Positions 2,079-27,107 of a stretch of 32,000 nt of DNA are shown piece after piece. Both the position numbers and the translations under genes were made by a program. The stretch comes from Candidatus Saccharimonadota bacterium (GTDB taxonomy: Bacteria; Patescibacteriota; Saccharimonadia; Saccharimonadales; UBA4665): contig OY970322.1 in the NCBI GenBank assembly GCA_963716945.1, positions 240,001 to 272,000 of the forward strand, written 5' to 3'. Below the pieces are notes generated by a model. That model made no database searches. It was not told the origin of the DNA and saw nothing but the letters and a program-made list of their open reading frames with translations. The stretch's first letter is position 1; each line of letters starts with the position of its first letter.

Positions 2079-3056
2079 ATGAGCGAGCTACAGGTAGTCA
2101 GATTCGATAATTTTAGGGTTGGGGTTGATTCCGTGCATGGAATCGGCGCCGTGCCGGATCCCGATACCGCTAAATCCGGTCCGGGTGTCGCTGAGGATAT
2201 AAAGACGGCTTTCGGCTATGAAGGCGATGACCTTGGCGGCCTGATCGGCCATGTCGCTCCGCACCGGGAATTGCAGCTCAATATCGATTTCGCCAAAGCC
2301 ACGCTCTCCGATCCGGCCGTCCAGGCCCGCTTAGGCCAGGAGGGCAGAACGGCTGCCGAGATTGCCCGGAGCTGGAGCGAGAGGTCGGGCCTGCAGACAG
2401 AAGTCTTCAGGCCGTTCATGAGCCCGGCCGACGGACCGGTTGAGAGGTTTGAGGCTGCCGAAATACCTGAACGCGTGCCCAACTGGCTGGAGCGGATGGG
2501 CGACACGGCCATCAAGCTGGGCAGGCAATACCCGATTGGCATACTGGCGCTGGCCTCATCGGACCGCGAAATCGGTCCTGACGAGAAGCCCGGCGTAGCC
2601 GAAGGCACCCCCTCCGAAAGCTACATGGAACAAACTTTGCTGCCGAGGCTTGAAGCGGGTAGAACGCGGGAAGAGGCCGAGGCCGGTGACGATAGCGGCC
2701 GCCCCGTCTTCGGCAGTGTCGAGATGATTAAAACCGGCGAAAAGGCCGGCGACGCGGTCATGGCCGGAGCCGCCGCAGCGCTGGCCGAGCGGGGAATAGA
2801 CCTGGCGACCGCCAAAATAGTCGTCTTCTCGGTCGCCGGCAACTGGATGCAAACCGGGGTCCAAGCTCGGCAGGGTTTGCAAACCGTTTATCCTGATTTT
2901 GACAGGGACCCGGCCGACCGGCAGCTATGGGTCAAGAGCGATACTTTTCCGATAGGCCTGACCGGCGACGAACCCAAAACCACTCACCAAAACCCGTTTA
3001 GCGCCATCGGCAATGTCCTGAGGGGCATTAAGCTGCTTGACGAAGTGCGCGGCTAG
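2079..3056 (+). CDS. hypothetical protein, 325 aa, no recognisable family
   Basis: Long ORF with a strong SD and a consensus promoter. It is acidic and has no TM segments. I recognised no motif. Its stop shares CTAG with the convergent ATPase stop. Confidence 0.7.
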   Translation: MSELQVVRFDNFRVGVDSVHGIGAVPDPDTAKSGPGVAEDIKTAFGYEGDDLGGLIGHVAPHRELQLNIDFAKATLSDPAVQARLGQEGRTAAEIARSWSERSGLQTEVFRPFMSPADGPVERFEAAEIPERVPNWLERMGDTAIKLGRQYPIGILALASSDREIGPDEKPGVAEGTPSESYMEQTLLPRLEAGRTREEAEAGDDSGRPVFGSVEMIKTGEKAGDAVMAGAAAALAERGIDLATAKIVVFSVAGNWMQTGVQARQGLQTVYPDFDRDPADRQLWVKSDTFPIGLTGDEPKTTHQNPFSAIGNVLRGIKLLDEVRG

Positions 3057-5888: not shown

Positions 5889-6404
5889 ATGGCTGACAAA
5901 ACGCAGCTGCGGCAGCAGCTTAGGCAGGCCCGTTTATCATTAAGCGACGGCGAACGCGTCCTCAAGAGCCGGGCAATCGTCGAATGCCTGGCCGGGCTGA
6001 CTGACTGGTCGGCCGTCAAGGCTCTGAACTATTTCGAGCCGATGCACAACCTGCTCGAAGTCGATATCCGCGACTTCATAACCGGACTGGAGGACAATTA
6101 TCCAGATATGAAGCTGTCGATGCCGAAGCTGATCGGCGGCAAGTGGGAGGTAGTATCGGTGCGGGGCGGACGGCCGCCCGGCCGGTTTGACGTCATTATC
6201 GTGCCGATGCTGGGGTTTGACCCGGCCAGCCTGCACCGGATCGGTTACGGCGGCGGTTATTATGATAAATTCCTGGCGGACCAGCCGCAGGCCAGGAAAA
6301 TCGGCGTCTGTTTCGAATCCGGCAAACTCGCGGACCTTCCGGCCGATGCCCATGACGTTGCCCTGGACAGCATAGTCACGGAGCTGGCGGTTTATACGAA
6401 GTAG
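5889..6404 (+). CDS. 5-formyltetrahydrofolate cyclo-ligase family protein
   Basis: FDVIIVPMLGFDPASLHRIGYGGGYYDKFL matches the family signature (vPgvaFD..G.RlGyGgGyYDrfL). The 171-aa size is typical. Confidence 0.85.
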   Translation: MADKTQLRQQLRQARLSLSDGERVLKSRAIVECLAGLTDWSAVKALNYFEPMHNLLEVDIRDFITGLEDNYPDMKLSMPKLIGGKWEVVSVRGGRPPGRFDVIIVPMLGFDPASLHRIGYGGGYYDKFLADQPQARKIGVCFESGKLADLPADAHDVALDSIVTELAVYTK

Positions 6405-9997: not shown

Positions 9998-10579
9998 ATG
10001 GCCATTATGGTAGGTTCGGGTACGCGCTACTTCATAGCTTTCTTCGTAGCCCTGGGGCTTCTGTTCCTGGTCATCTTCCTGTTGTTTCACAGCGGGACGC
10101 AAAAGCCAAAGGCGCCGACCGCCCGCTCCCTGGTCAGCTACGCTACCACTGACGCCCAGGTCAGCATGAGCATAGACGGTCCGGTCAATGCCGACCAGAA
10201 CCACCAGCAGGTCCTGGTTACCGTCAGTAACCAGGACGTTACCTTCGAACAATTACAGGGCTATGACGGCAATGTCGTCTATTCCCAGAGTTTCGCCAAC
10301 ACCGAGAACGCTTACGCCGCCTTCTTGCAGTCCCTGGCCCACGCCGGCTTCACGCTTGGCAATAACAGCCCGACCGCCAAAGACGAGCGCGGTTACTGTC
10401 CGCTTGGCGAGCGTTATGTTTTCCAGCTGCAGCAGGATAGCCAGACCCTGGAGCGCTATTGGACGACCAGCTGCGGCGGCAAGCTCAGGACTTATCAGGG
10501 CCTCCAGAGCCTGACAATCGAACTATTCCAAAACCAGGTGCCGAACTACAGGGGCCTGACCAAGACGGTTTTGTTTTAG
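9998..10579 (+). CDS. hypothetical N-terminally membrane-anchored or secreted protein, 193 aa
   Basis: It has an N-terminal TM or signal-like segment (YFIAFFVALGLLFLVIFLLF) and two Cys in the C-terminal part. The start could instead be the ATG at 10007, because TTGAAA(9969)-17-TAGTAT(9992-9997) abuts the first ATG. Confidence 0.7.
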   Translation: MAIMVGSGTRYFIAFFVALGLLFLVIFLLFHSGTQKPKAPTARSLVSYATTDAQVSMSIDGPVNADQNHQQVLVTVSNQDVTFEQLQGYDGNVVYSQSFANTENAYAAFLQSLAHAGFTLGNNSPTAKDERGYCPLGERYVFQLQQDSQTLERYWTTSCGGKLRTYQGLQSLTIELFQNQVPNYRGLTKTVLF

Positions 10580-22022: not shown

Positions 22023-22044
22023 CAAATTCTTAAGAAAGGAATCT

Positions 22045-24186
22045 ATGCAACCAAACAACAAACCTAACCGGCCCCCGAAAAATAATTCGGGGCCCAAGCA
22101 ACAAGGCCCCCCGCGCCGCGGCTCCGGCCGCCAGGCGGGCCAAGGCGGCAAGGCGCCCAGGAAATCCCAAGGGCAGGCCATAACTACCAGCCTGACGACT
22201 TCGCGCGGCCAGGCCGTGCGCGCCCAGCGGCGTTCGCAAGCCGACGCCCAGCGCATCGCCAACCAGTACGTGGCGGCCGCCGACAGCGGCGACAAGCCGG
22301 CCCGCGCCAATCTCATTGACGACCGGCCGCGGTTGAAGATCATCGGTCTCGGCGGCATGGACGGCGGCGGCTCCAAGAACATGATCCTCGTCGAATATAT
22401 GAACGACGCGGTCATCCTGGACTGCGGCAACGACCTCGGCGTCGACTTGCCGGGTATCAACTACGGCATTGCCGACACGGCTTACCTGGAACAGATCAAG
22501 CCCAAGCTGCGGGCTTACATCATAACCCACGGCCACCTTGACCACATCGGCGGCTTGCCGCACATCGTGCCGAAATTCCCGGCACCGATTTACGGCAGCA
22601 AATTCACCATCGGCCGGGTCGAGGAAATCTTCGAAAACTTCGGTTTGCCGATGCCCGACGGCTTCGAACTCAAGACCGTGACGATGAACGAAAACACCCA
22701 CGAACGCCTCAAGATCGGCGAATTCTTCGTCGAGCTGGTCCGGGTGACGCACTCCATACCCGGCAGTACGGTCATCGTGCTCGATACGCCGGTCGGACGG
22801 ATCATTAACACCGGTGATTTCCGGTTTGATCCGAATCCGCTGGACCATGAGCGCAGCGACATCGAGCGGCTGACCGAACTCGGCAACGAGGGTGTCCTGG
22901 CGCTGCTCAGCGAGAGCACCACGACCGAACGGCCCGGCCGCACGCCGAGCGAATCGACGATCGAGCAGAGCTTCAAGGACATTATGGATAACGCCCCCGG
23001 CCGGATCTTCGTCGGCCTGTTCTCGACTAACATGAACCGTGTCCAGATGATCATCAACGCCGCCGTCCACCACAACAAAAAAGTCGCCATGGACGGCCGC
23101 AGCATGGTCAGCACGCTGGAAATGGCCGTCCGCCACGGTTTCGTCCGGATTCCCAAAGGTACTTTCGTGCCGATTGCTTCGGCCGCTACCATGAAAGACC
23201 AGGACCTGGTCGTCGTTTGTACCGGCTCCCAGGGCGAGCCCAGCTCGGCCCTGCAGCGGATGAGCAACGGCGAGCACCGCCACGTCAAGCTCAAGGAGCA
23301 GGACACGGTCATCCTGTCCAGCACGCCGATTCCGTATTCCGGCAATGACGCCAAAATCCGCACTATGGTCGACGAACTGCTCAAGAAGGGCGTCCACGTT
23401 TTCCGCCACGAAACCCGCGAAGTCGACGGTATCGGCCCGCTGCACGTTTCCGGCCACGCTTCGCGCGAGGAGTACGCCGATATGATTAACTTGACCAAAC
23501 CAAAGTTCTTCATCCCGATCTACGGCGACTTCACGGCCAAACGCTACCATGTCGACATTGCCGTCGAACAGGGCATCCCGCGGGCCAACACCCTCAATGT
23601 CGGCAACGGCCAGGTCATCTCGCTGACCCCTGACAAGATGGAAGTCGTCGGCGAAGTGCCGTTCGGCACCATCCTGGTCGACCAGACCGGCGCCCTGGTC
23701 AGCAATGTCGTCGTCAAGGACCGCGTCCTGCTGAGCGAAGAAGGCCTGGTGGCCGTCGTGCTGACCATCGACAAGAAATCCGGCAGCTTGCTAACCAGCC
23801 CCGATATCATTAGCCGCGGCTTCATATATATGCGTGACAACGAGGAGATCATGAACGGCCTGCGCGTCGAGCTCAAGCGGGCCGTCCAGCAGCGCTTCAA
23901 GCGCGTCGACCTCGACCGCTTCAAGGTCGAGCTCAAAGAACACATTACGCATTACCTGTTCGAGCACACCCAGCGCAGCCCGATCGTCATCCCGGTCGTC
24001 AACATCGTCACGGGCGGGGGCGGAGCAGGCAAGCAGCCGCAAAACCAGGCTGCCAACGCCGCTAAGGGCGGCCCGAACCAGCCCCAGCCAAAAGAGAAAA
24101 CCCCTGAAGAGATAGCTGCCGAACAGCAGAAACGCTTCCAGGAAATGCGCGCCCGCCTCCTGACCCAAGACCCGCGCGTCGACTAG
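22045..24186 (+). CDS. rnj: ribonuclease J with basic low-complexity N-terminal extension
   Basis: The metallo-beta-lactamase motif ITHGHLDHIGGLP is present, with beta-CASP and C-terminal domains. The conserved core begins near LKIIGLGG, after an extension of about 95 aa. The SD AAAGGA precedes the ATG. Confidence 0.95.
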   Translation: MQPNNKPNRPPKNNSGPKQQGPPRRGSGRQAGQGGKAPRKSQGQAITTSLTTSRGQAVRAQRRSQADAQRIANQYVAAADSGDKPARANLIDDRPRLKIIGLGGMDGGGSKNMILVEYMNDAVILDCGNDLGVDLPGINYGIADTAYLEQIKPKLRAYIITHGHLDHIGGLPHIVPKFPAPIYGSKFTIGRVEEIFENFGLPMPDGFELKTVTMNENTHERLKIGEFFVELVRVTHSIPGSTVIVLDTPVGRIINTGDFRFDPNPLDHERSDIERLTELGNEGVLALLSESTTTERPGRTPSESTIEQSFKDIMDNAPGRIFVGLFSTNMNRVQMIINAAVHHNKKVAMDGRSMVSTLEMAVRHGFVRIPKGTFVPIASAATMKDQDLVVVCTGSQGEPSSALQRMSNGEHRHVKLKEQDTVILSSTPIPYSGNDAKIRTMVDELLKKGVHVFRHETREVDGIGPLHVSGHASREEYADMINLTKPKFFIPIYGDFTAKRYHVDIAVEQGIPRANTLNVGNGQVISLTPDKMEVVGEVPFGTILVDQTGALVSNVVVKDRVLLSEEGLVAVVLTIDKKSGSLLTSPDIISRGFIYMRDNEEIMNGLRVELKRAVQQRFKRVDLDRFKVELKEHITHYLFEHTQRSPIVIPVVNIVTGGGGAGKQPQNQAANAAKGGPNQPQPKEKTPEEIAAEQQKRFQEMRARLLTQDPRVD

Positions 24187-24210: not shown

Positions 24211-24239
24211 TTGACAAAGGTTGTAATTTTTGCTATAAT
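24211..24239 (+). promoter_or_regulatory. perfect consensus promoter TTGACA-17-TATAAT upstream of ftsK
   Basis: TTGACA is at 24211-24216 and TATAAT at 24234-24239. A second TATAAT at 24274-24279 lies 13 nt before the ATG at 24293. Confidence 0.65.
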
Positions 24240-24292: not shown

Positions 24293-26515
24293 ATGGCTAA
24301 AAAGAAAAAACGAACAGCTAAGAAAAAGACCAAAGCCGCGGCTCCGCTCGAGCGGTCGCCGTTCTGGGCGTATGCCGGTGCCATCGTCCTGATGCTGGCG
24401 GCTATCTTCCTCTTCATCGGCGGTTTCGGCACCGGCGGTCCGTTGCCGGTCGACCTGTTCAACGCGGCTTACTGGACGCTGGGCTGGGCGGCCTACCTGA
24501 CGCCGGTGGCTCTTATATACTGGGGCGTTTATAAGTTTATGACCGAGGACCGCCGGATTCCGCTGAGCAAGCTGGTCGGCATGCTGTGCGTCCTGGTTTT
24601 CGCGAGCGCCTGGGCCCACGTGGCTTTCGTATCAAAAGACCGGGCTGGTAATTGGACCGGCGGCCACGGCGGCATGGTCGGCAAGGGCCTCGGCGGCGCC
24701 GTGCTGAGCATCTTGGACAAAATACCGGCTTCGCTGCTGTTCTTCGTTTTCACGGTGTTGGCGGTGTTCTTTGCGTTCGGCATTTCGCCAAAAGTCCTGC
24801 TCAAGCTCGCCGATTTATTCAACCGGCCGGAGCGCGAGGCTGACGATAACGACCTGGCGGCCCTGAAGGCCAGGGCGGCCGAGCAGCCCGGCTTCCAGCT
24901 TAACGAGGGCGTGCCGGTCGTCCACCACAGCCCCGGCGAGCCGGCCCGGCTGTCGACGCTCAAGAACACGGCCCAGAAACTGGCCGGCAACGAAAGCCAC
25001 GAGGCCTTGACGACGGCCAGCGACCCGAACTGGCAATTCCCGAGCATTGATTTGCTCAACCAGAAACAGGACAAGGCCGATGCCGGCGACGTCAACAACA
25101 ACGCCCAGATTATCCATGACACCTTCGAGAACTTCAATATCGAAGTCGAGATGGAAGGCGCCAATATCGGGCCGCGCGTAACCCAGTACACGCTGAAGCC
25201 GCCGACAGGGGTGAAACTGACCAAGATCACGGCCCTGGAGAACAACCTGGCGCTCGACCTGGCCGCCCACTCCATCCGCATGGAAGCCCCGATTCCCGGC
25301 AAGCGGGCCGTCGGCATCGAGGTGCCGAACGTCAAGTCGGCGACCGTCCGGGTCAGTTCGATCCTGCTGTCGCGCGAGTGGCAGGAGCAGAAAAGCGCGC
25401 TGGAATTCGCCATCGGCAAAGATATTTCCGGTACGCCGATCGTCGCCGACCTGGACCAAAATGCCGCACATCCTGGTCGCCGGCCAGACCGGTTCCGGCA
25501 AGTCGGTCATGATTAATACGATCCTGACCAGCTTGCTGTACCGCAATTCGCCAGCCGACCTCAAACTGATCCTGGTTGACCCGAAGCAGGTCGAACTGAA
25601 GCCTTATGATGAAATTCCGCACCTGCTGACCCCGGTCATCACCGAGCCCGAGAAATGTATCAGCGCCCTCAAGTGGGCGGTCGCCGAAATGGAACGCCGC
25701 TACCGCGCCCTGGCCGAGGTCAACAAGCGCAACATCGCCGACTATAACAGCCTCAAAAAAGAAGAGGGCATGCCTTATATAGTTATCGTCATCGACGAGC
25801 TGGCCGACCTGATGATGATGGCCGCCCGTGACGTCGAGGCTTTGATTGTCCGCATCGCCCAAAAGGCGCGGGCCGTCGGCATCCACTTGGTGCTGGCCAC
25901 CCAGCGGCCCTCCGTCGATGTTATCACCGGTCTGATTAAGGCTAACGTGCCGGCCCGGATCGCCTTTACAGACGACGTCGCAGGTCGACAGCCGGACGAT
26001 TATCGACCAGGTCGGCGCCGAGAAACTGCTGGGGCAGGGCGACATGCTGCTGACCACCGCTGACGTGCCTAAGCCGCGAGCGTATCCAAGGCGCGCTGAT
26101 CGGTGACGACGAGACCAGCAAGGTAACCGATTTTATCCGGATGCAGCGGCCGCCGCAATACGACGACGAAGTCGTTTCGCAACCCGTCCAGCTTAACGGC
26201 AAGGGCGGCATAGTCGCTGACTACGGCGGCCAGGACGCCGACGACGACATGTGGCGCGACGCCGTGAAGGTTGTCATTGACAACCGCAAAGCCAGCACCA
26301 GCCTGTTGCAGCGGCGTTTGCGCATCGGTTACGGCCGGGCCGCCCGCCTGATCGAAACCATGGAAGAGCAGGGTATCGTCGGGGCTGCCGACGGCTCGCG
26401 GCCGCGCGAGGTCCTGGTTAATTCGGTTGACGATGTCTTCGGCGGCCGCGGGGCCGCGCGAAGCCGACGCCGCACTCGACGAAAACTTCCCCGACGACTA
26501 AGGCCGCCCCTTTAA
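24293..26515 (+). pseudogene. ftsK: DNA translocase FtsK/SpoIIIE interrupted by three +1 frameshifts (pseudogene, split gene or assembly error)
   Basis: Track ORFs 24293-25516, 25461-26063 and 26141-26515, plus an unlisted piece at 25969-26106, together spell a complete FtsK. The order is TM segments, then [13 protein letters not shown] | [16 protein letters not shown] (Walker A), [10 protein letters not shown] (Walker B), [25 protein letters not shown] | [31 protein letters not shown] | [11 protein letters not shown], and finally the gamma domain LLQRRLRIGYGRAARLIETMEEQGIV. The frame changes at about 25454-25458, 25968 and 26077-26080. Confidence 0.85.
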
Positions 26516-26555: not shown

Positions 26556-27107
26556 ATGCCAGACCCTGAAAGCACCTCAAACCGCGAAGCCACCCAGCAG
26601 GAAATAGACTATTTGGCCGGCTTGCTGCAGAAGCGGTTTTCATTCCCCCCTAAATATGACGCCGACACGCCGTCAGTCTATATTCATCCGGTATCCAATA
26701 ACCTGACACCGGAACAAATAGACTCGGGCGAGCACGCGCCTACCATAGGCAAATTGGATGACGGCGGCCCCGAACACTTAGTGGCGCCTTCGGGCGACCC
26801 GATGGTACTGCGGGCCGTGCGAGGTGTCGTCTTGCCGGAGAGGGGCTCCCTCAGTGACACGAAACTGCTCCGCTACACCATTTTGTATCCGGGCAGCGAC
26901 ACCTCCGCCCACCTTATAGGGGCCGACGGTACGATAGTGCCGCCGCGGAGCGACAGGCGTTTCCTGGTTGATATTTATGACGATGGGCGGCCCTCGGAGG
27001 CGTGGTCCGGCCTCTCCAGCCATGACCACAAGCGTGCTACGTCACAGGATATAGCGGACCTTTACGGCGATATTGAGCTAGCCAGAGAAGTTCCACAGGC
27101 CGCTTGA
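26556..27107 (+). CDS. hypothetical protein, 183 aa, no recognisable family
   Basis: ORF with neighbour-like codon usage. It has no SD and no TM segment. No motif was recognised. Confidence 0.6.
   Translation: MPDPESTSNREATQQEIDYLAGLLQKRFSFPPKYDADTPSVYIHPVSNNLTPEQIDSGEHAPTIGKLDDGGPEHLVAPSGDPMVLRAVRGVVLPERGSLSDTKLLRYTILYPGSDTSAHLIGADGTIVPPRSDRRFLVDIYDDGRPSEAWSGLSSHDHKRATSQDIADLYGDIELAREVPQAA

Follow-up and report, generated by a model that had tools for sequence, protein, structure and literature searches.

The ftsK gene of the window and its reading frames

The window analyzed here, a 32,000-nucleotide stretch of contig OY970322.1 from a Candidatus Saccharimonadota bacterium, is a syntenic core-gene stretch of Saccharimonadales (Candidatus Saccharibacteria, TM7), and it includes ftsK, the gene for a translocase of the FtsK/SpoIIIE type. 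In the record, the motor of this protein is not encoded by one uninterrupted frame. Three-frame translation and the list of open reading frames (ORFs) revealed that FtsK homology passes through frames 2, 0, 1, 2, and 0 (mod 3), that is, through four frame changes. An earlier note on this DNA had proposed that three +1 events within ftsK add up to a restored frame, and this was borne out by the three-frame translation, by the ORF list, and by DNA alignments. The four sites, the pieces that they delimit, and the promoter-like site upstream of the gene are collected in Table 1.

Table 1. Features of the ftsK locus (positions are those of the window)
Feature	Position	Strand	Description
Promoter-like site upstream of ftsK	24211..24239	+	TTGACA, 17-nt spacer, TATAAT, TG before the -10; 12/12 consensus positions
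ftsK after repair	24293..26501	+	~734-739 amino acids; 4TM, linker, alpha, RecA-like motor, gamma
Piece 1	24293..25454	+	mod3=2; 4TM, linker, alpha, and motor start up to ...IVADL
Site 1	25454..25457	+	GACC against a single codon GCC (Ala)/GAC (Asp) in relatives; one extra base; Walker A follows nine codons downstream
Piece 2	25457..25967	+	mod3=0; Walker A and VIVIDE (Walker B), to ...VPARIAF
Site 2	25968..25971	+	ACAG against a single codon ACN (Thr)/AAR (Lys) in relatives; one extra base
Piece 3	25970..26078	+	mod3=1; 37 amino acids, ends ...DVPKP; no usable start codon
Site 3	26077..26080	+	CGAG against a single codon CGG/CGA/AGG (Arg) or AAG (Lys) in relatives; one extra base
Piece 4	26081..26455	+	mod3=2; linker and gamma (winged-helix) domain, to ...DDVFGG
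Site 4 zone	26441..26462	+	frame change, +1 or -2, in a length-variable GC-rich C-terminal tail
Acidic C-terminus EADAALDENFPDD and stop	26459..26501	+	mod3=0; last 13 residues; stop at 26499-26501

When one base was removed at each of sites 1 to 3, we obtained a 739-amino-acid protein in which four domains are complete: the N-terminal 4TM domain (PF13491, E = 2.4e-12, residues 59-166), the alpha domain (PF17854, 1.3e-29), the FtsK_SpoIIIE motor (PF01580, 1.2e-63), and the gamma domain (PF09397, 2.5e-28, residues 648-708); alpha domain and motor are found together only once the three bases are removed. This repaired protein is 94% identical to an intact 734-amino-acid Saccharimonadales FtsK (P0001) and matches the Pseudomonas aeruginosa FtsK 2IUT of the PDB with E = 4.7e-127; the Walker A motif GQTGSGKS and the Walker B-like sequence VIVIDE are invariant between the window and its relatives. 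The full architecture is the same as that of the FtsK/SpoIIIE translocases of P. aeruginosa (2IUT/2IUU) and Escherichia coli (2IUS), from which the window differs in that the frame of its record is broken four times. A predicted sigma-70-type promoter with an extended -10 TG lies 54 nt upstream of the ftsK start, while the start itself, at 24293, has no Shine-Dalgarno (SD)-like sequence. No comparable promoter-like site was found on the + strand upstream of the internal pieces at 25461 and 26141.

For comparison we used 80 GTDB species representatives that a search with the protein had retrieved and the five closest metagenome contigs (85 relatives), plus the loci L086, L087, and L088, which gives 88 loci; L088 encodes the same protein as L087 and was counted without a separate alignment. 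The ftsK gene was unbroken in every one of these 88 loci. In tblastn searches, each of the 85 relatives gave one ftsK high-scoring segment pair (HSP) in one frame, and L086 and L087 differed from the window by in-frame insertions or deletions (indels) only, apart from the four sites. Alignment of the DNA with the intact relatives L001, L003, and L004 placed single-base insertions that are found in the window only at 25455, 25969, 26079, and 26458, the remaining coding indels all being multiples of 3, and the insertions at sites 1 to 3 were window-only against L086 and L087 as well. The earlier note had suggested a tblastn check of whether the closest relatives share the shifts; none of them does, and the split is unique to the window record.

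The pieces themselves could be placed on the proteins of relatives. By tblastn, residues 18-388 of the FtsK of relative L004 were placed at 24344-25453 in frame 2, and piece 2 showed 96.5% protein identity to L004 residues 390-559. Piece 3 lies in no listed + strand ORF of at least 40 amino acids. At the end of the gene, the C-terminus of relatives, ...GGGAAGSEADAALDENFPDD, fits the frame-0 tail of the window and not the Arg-rich frame-2 tail, and the frame-0 tail EADAALDENFPDD agrees with the termini of P0007, P0008, and P0015 and with the DNA of L086, L087, and L015. Judged by this agreement, the acidic frame-0 tail is the authentic C-terminus. The earlier note had raised the possibility of a fourth event that exchanges the Arg-rich tail for an acidic one. 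This event is real but has no unambiguous sign: compared with L001, L003, L004, and L015 it is a +1 change, and compared with L086 and L087, whose tails are the most similar, a -2 change.

We also compared ftsK with the rest of the window. Twenty syntenic L004 proteins each gave one full-length HSP in one frame of the window, and FtsK alone was split (frames 2, 3, 1, and 2). Together with the complete Pfam domain coverage of the long genes in 1-14.5 kb, this upheld the statement that no other long gene is interrupted. The chance that four random events would fall within one 1004-nt span of ~30 kb is ~1.5e-4. Repeat-mediated misassembly was considered and rejected, as no repeat involving ftsK was found within the window. 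The nearest relative varied by piece, being L001 for the N-terminal part and L004 for piece 2, a pattern that is uninterpretable as a mosaic or chimera signal at 80-87% identity with saturated third positions.

Searches for other copies of the shifted sequence were negative. No protein among 5.8 billion has even three 5-mers in common with the out-of-frame peptides of the window, and a 40-nt pattern across site 2, whether the extra base was included or not, had no match in the genome and metagenome contig collections. Exact look-ups with RNase J and with the 200-amino-acid middle piece likewise returned no match. A 22-mer just upstream of site 1 matched two distant FtsK genes only (32-37% amino acid identity), and these matches arose by chance.

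Alleles at the shift sites and the test for decay

Each of the three clear events is an insertion outside homopolymers (the contexts are CTG GAC C AAA, TTT ACA G ACG, and CCG CGA G CGT); the poly-A-rich 5' end of ftsK (24299-24311) is in frame. Either base of the doublets GACC, ACAG, and CGAG may be the extra one. At each of the three sites, the inserted base is one that relatives commonly have as the alternative allele at the same position, and the doublets spell both alleles: GCC/GAC, AAG/ACG, and CGG/CGA. This polymorphism was measured among related species, not inside the sample, the nearest sequence available being ~84% identical in DNA and thus too distant for strain phasing.

Among the 85 relatives, the codons at site 1 included GCC (22), GAC (14), GCT (13), and GAT (10). 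Site 2 was occupied by ACC (23), ACT (21), ACG (16), ACA (12), AAG (6), or AAA (6), which amounts to ACN in 72 relatives and AAR in 12; from these codons, the residue at site 2 is more probably K or T than the Q that the earlier note had restored. At site 3 we found AAG (50), AAA (13), CGG (7), AGG (3), CGT (3), and CGA (2), or 63 relatives with AAG/AAA against 17 with CGG/CGA/AGG and similar codons. When the eight closest relatives were taken, the second codon position was evenly divided both at site 1 (C:A = 4:4) and at site 2 (A:C = 4:4), and at site 3 close relatives were polymorphic (G/A) at the second as well as at the third codon position. Just 17% of the second codon positions in this part of ftsK have a second allele at a frequency of at least 10%.

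The simulated null comprised all insertions of one base that are possible in codons 376-713, and the score of an insertion was how frequently relatives have the inserted base instead of the neighboring one. All 83 relatives were used, or just the closest 18 or the closest 8, with homopolymer insertions allowed or not. Taken jointly, the three observed scores are improbable. Depending on the relative set and the homopolymer setting, the simulated null gave p values of 1e-2 to 3e-5 for the minimum score and of 3e-3 to 1e-5 for the summed score.

We then asked whether the gene shows decay. Downstream of site 1, the repaired protein keeps 131 of the 131 columns that are invariant in 83 non-redundant relatives. 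In the repaired frame, the differences from L001 at first, second, and third codon positions were 14/3/61 in piece 2, 0/0/10 in piece 3, and 6/3/51 in piece 4, and third codon positions dominated the divergence in every piece against the three closest relatives. Thus no sign of decay was seen in ftsK, neither a lost third-position bias nor changes at invariant residues, although a pseudogene that had gathered just a few mutations would look the same. In bacterial mutation spectra, base substitutions prevail over indels by ~10:1, and spontaneous indels are deletion-biased and homopolymer-centered. Because substitutions exceed indels about tenfold, a gene that had gained four neutral indels per kb would be expected to show several replacements at invariant residues as well. 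On this comparison, the shifts are either not real or no older than a handful of mutations.

Origin of the frame changes

The insertions are unique to this record, have the character of allele doublets, and come without decay, and we infer that reads of mixed strains together with a haploid consensus step produced them. It is likely that the ftsK frame changes are errors of the deposited consensus, introduced when mixed strains were merged by consensus or polishing, and not features of the organism's gene; that they are an artefact of one kind or another is somewhat more likely still. Reads of two or more co-occurring Saccharimonadales strains would have piled onto the most conserved DNA of the neighborhood. 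At single-base strain differences, consensus or polishing would then have kept both alleles adjacent (GCC/GAC becoming GACC, AAG/ACG becoming ACAG, and CGG/CGA becoming CGAG), each retained doublet being a +1 insertion. The organism's own ftsK is probably single, intact, and normal, and the real gene would be an ordinary ftsK under the consensus promoter at 24211-24239. A model in which both alleles of mixed strains are kept predicts the allele doublets, and with them insertions only, no other errors, and a conserved stretch as the likely place of cross-mapping. In the ~13 kb aligned with L004 (18650-31841), the ftsK motor is the most conserved DNA, with an identity of 0.85-0.87 against ~0.70-0.83 elsewhere.

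A tool for frameshift errors in long-read assemblies, proovframe, reportedly exists. Indels persist in long-read consensus sequences, the typical nanopore consensus error being a homopolymer indel (PMC9262707), and haploid polishers have no model of polymorphism (PMC7483855). The frameshift errors of long-read genomes and metagenomes resemble the window in that single-base consensus indels fragment the calls of an otherwise normal gene (PMC9262707). The classical long-read error, however, is an error of homopolymer length that occurs genome-wide, whereas the events in the window are non-homopolymer insertions at polymorphic positions of one gene.

Several points weigh against a mixed-strain origin. 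Between ~65 and 72% of non-homopolymer insertions match some allele of the 83 diverged relatives, chance likeness at third positions being common; because so many third-position insertions look allele-like by chance, the doublet signature draws its weight chiefly from allele frequency and from sites 1 and 2. Site 4 has no clear fit to the doublet pattern. The conservation peak at ftsK is modest, one RNase J window reaching 0.857, and RNase J and PNPase have parts of similar conservation that are free of such errors. The support is comparative throughout, and we found no paper documenting a failure in which both alleles are retained, the literature giving general limits of indel polishing.

The explanation nearest to the face value of the sequence, which is frameshifted as given, is a genuine and very recent inactivation: the genome would carry the shifts, and ftsK would be a fresh pseudogene in the episymbiont lineage or in a subpopulation. 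After a first killing shift, later indels would be neutral and would cluster in one gene, and Saccharibacteria have reduced genomes and lose genes. Young pseudogenes of reduced or host-associated genomes likewise carry multiple frameshifts in one gene with intact neighbors, but they also show substitutions, a deletion bias, and homopolymer indels, none of which was seen in the ftsK of the window. Here four indels stand against 0 substitutions at the 131 invariant residues, the clear events are all insertions outside homopolymers, contrary to the known spectrum, and they coincide with polymorphic sites and spell both alleles; we know of no mutational process that predicts allele-doublet insertions. 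With ftsK intact in 88/88 loci, the motor between sites 1 and 2 at 96.5% protein identity to L004, and the consensus promoter intact, we regard inactivation as unlikely. Slightly less credible to us is a generic low-quality patch, in which a stretch of locally low coverage, or one that was gap-filled, would hold random errors of sequencing or consensus that have nothing to do with strain polymorphism. It would agree with the clustering of errors in ~1 kb of an otherwise clean 32 kb and with the known retention of frameshifting indels in long-read assemblies (PMC9262707). Such a patch should bring substitutions and deletions too, yet no aberrant residues occur at invariant columns, the clear events are insertions only, none is in a homopolymer, and the poly-A-rich stretch at 24299-24311 is in frame. 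Inserted bases that match common alleles would also be unlikely for random errors.

Functional interruptions, in which the pieces are translated separately or ribosomal +1 shifts at each site give full-length FtsK, appear very improbable. It is true that the three shifts total 3 nt and return the gamma domain to the original frame, that piece 2 opens at an ATG (the Met of KMPH), and that reading a codon and then skipping one base gives a residue seen in relatives at each site (D from GAC C AAA, T from ACA G ACG, and R from CGA G CGT). The shifts are shared by 0/88 of the relatives' loci, however, and an artefact accounts better for the doublet signature. For a split gene, the RecA-like domain would be cut in three, piece 3 has no start codon, the first ATG of piece 4, at 26141, would lose ~20 conserved residues, and there are no internal promoter-like sites. 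The KMPH Met at which the earlier note let the second piece of a split gene begin is merely a conserved internal Met, present in 83/85 relatives, and 88/88 loci are unsplit. Ribosome-binding sites were set aside as a test of the split gene, since the true start also lacks an SD sequence. As for a programmed +1 shift, inspection by eye showed that the sites have no slippery motif in common, that none of them has a stop codon or one that is obviously slow, and that an SD-like (GGAGG-like) stimulator is absent. Frameshifting of the prfB (RF2) type likewise places one extra nucleotide between in-frame halves of a conserved protein, but in prfB the slippery-stop CUU UGA C is conserved, an SD-like element precedes it, and relatives have the shift in common, whereas the three or four contexts in the window are unrelated and lack a stop codon at the site, and the shift occurs in no relative. 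Most far-fetched is that the insertions are physically present and FtsK is still functional, through site-specific +1 frameshifting or base skipping at three or four sites or as a motor assembled from fragments.

Of the four options that the earlier note had listed, consensus indels and population heterogeneity are favored in combination, the split gene is unsupported, and pseudogenization found no positive support. The biological weight of the frame changes is very small; the ftsK of the organism is most probably ordinary and intact. Automatic annotation of the record would probably yield three or four fragments or a pseudogene, and this could add false calls of gene loss, in a candidate-phylum-radiation (CPR) lineage, for a gene at the core of division and segregation; the ftsK of the window record should not be counted as lost. 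The doublet signature, an extra base that equals the relatives' alternative allele, lies outside homopolymers, and is clustered in the most conserved DNA, may help to flag, without a reference, the consensus errors that strain mixtures cause in metagenome-assembled genomes (MAGs). Should the insertions be true, a freshly inactivated or shift-decoded ftsK would be notable in a Saccharibacterium.

Neighboring genes and the records of relatives

Besides ftsK, Pfam searches identified genes for a P-type ATPase, polA, fpg, and otsAB in the window. Further genes are holA, rpsT, a DHH-family gene, truB, rpsO, pnp, a UDG gene, rnj, rpsF, ssb, rpsR, efp, and others. Three + strand ORFs of 193-325 amino acids (181-1122, 2079-3056, and 9998-10579) had no Pfam family at E <= 1e-5, and for a 171-amino-acid 5-FTHF cyclo-ligase homologue at 5889-6404 the best match covers no more of the Pfam profile than its C-terminal third. 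Antisense to rnj and ftsK run long ORFs, the largest with 506 amino acids (22030-23550, 24529-25419, and 25353-26057, all on the - strand, and others); they are probably not genes but the usual stop-poor antisense frames of coding DNA with ~60% GC.

Between ftsK and rpsF, the window has a 183-amino-acid ORF without family assignment (26556-27107, + strand). The closest relative, L001, has a 186-amino-acid ORF (2344-2904) in the same position, while in L003 and L004 there is no ORF between the two genes and rpsF follows directly after ftsK. DNA identity between the window and L004 falls to ~0.03-0.11 at this ORF, which looks like a lineage-specific insertion.

In the L086 record, a seemingly absent S15 gene and a shortened FtsK N-terminus raised the question of nanopore homopolymer errors; this was rejected, as both are gene-calling differences and the genes are intact. 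The rpsO gene of L086 is present in the DNA and uncalled, and the deposited FtsK (P0007, 719 amino acids; L086 9946-12160) begins at an internal TTG, with the MAKKKK N-terminus in frame upstream. Finally, several public MAG records whose FtsK is 75-94% identical to that of the window (L019, L055, L082, and P0001) carry the labels Candidatus Sulfotelmatobacter, Limnocylindria, Bacillota, or Dormibacteraeota, and they look like mis-binned or mislabeled Saccharimonadales contigs.

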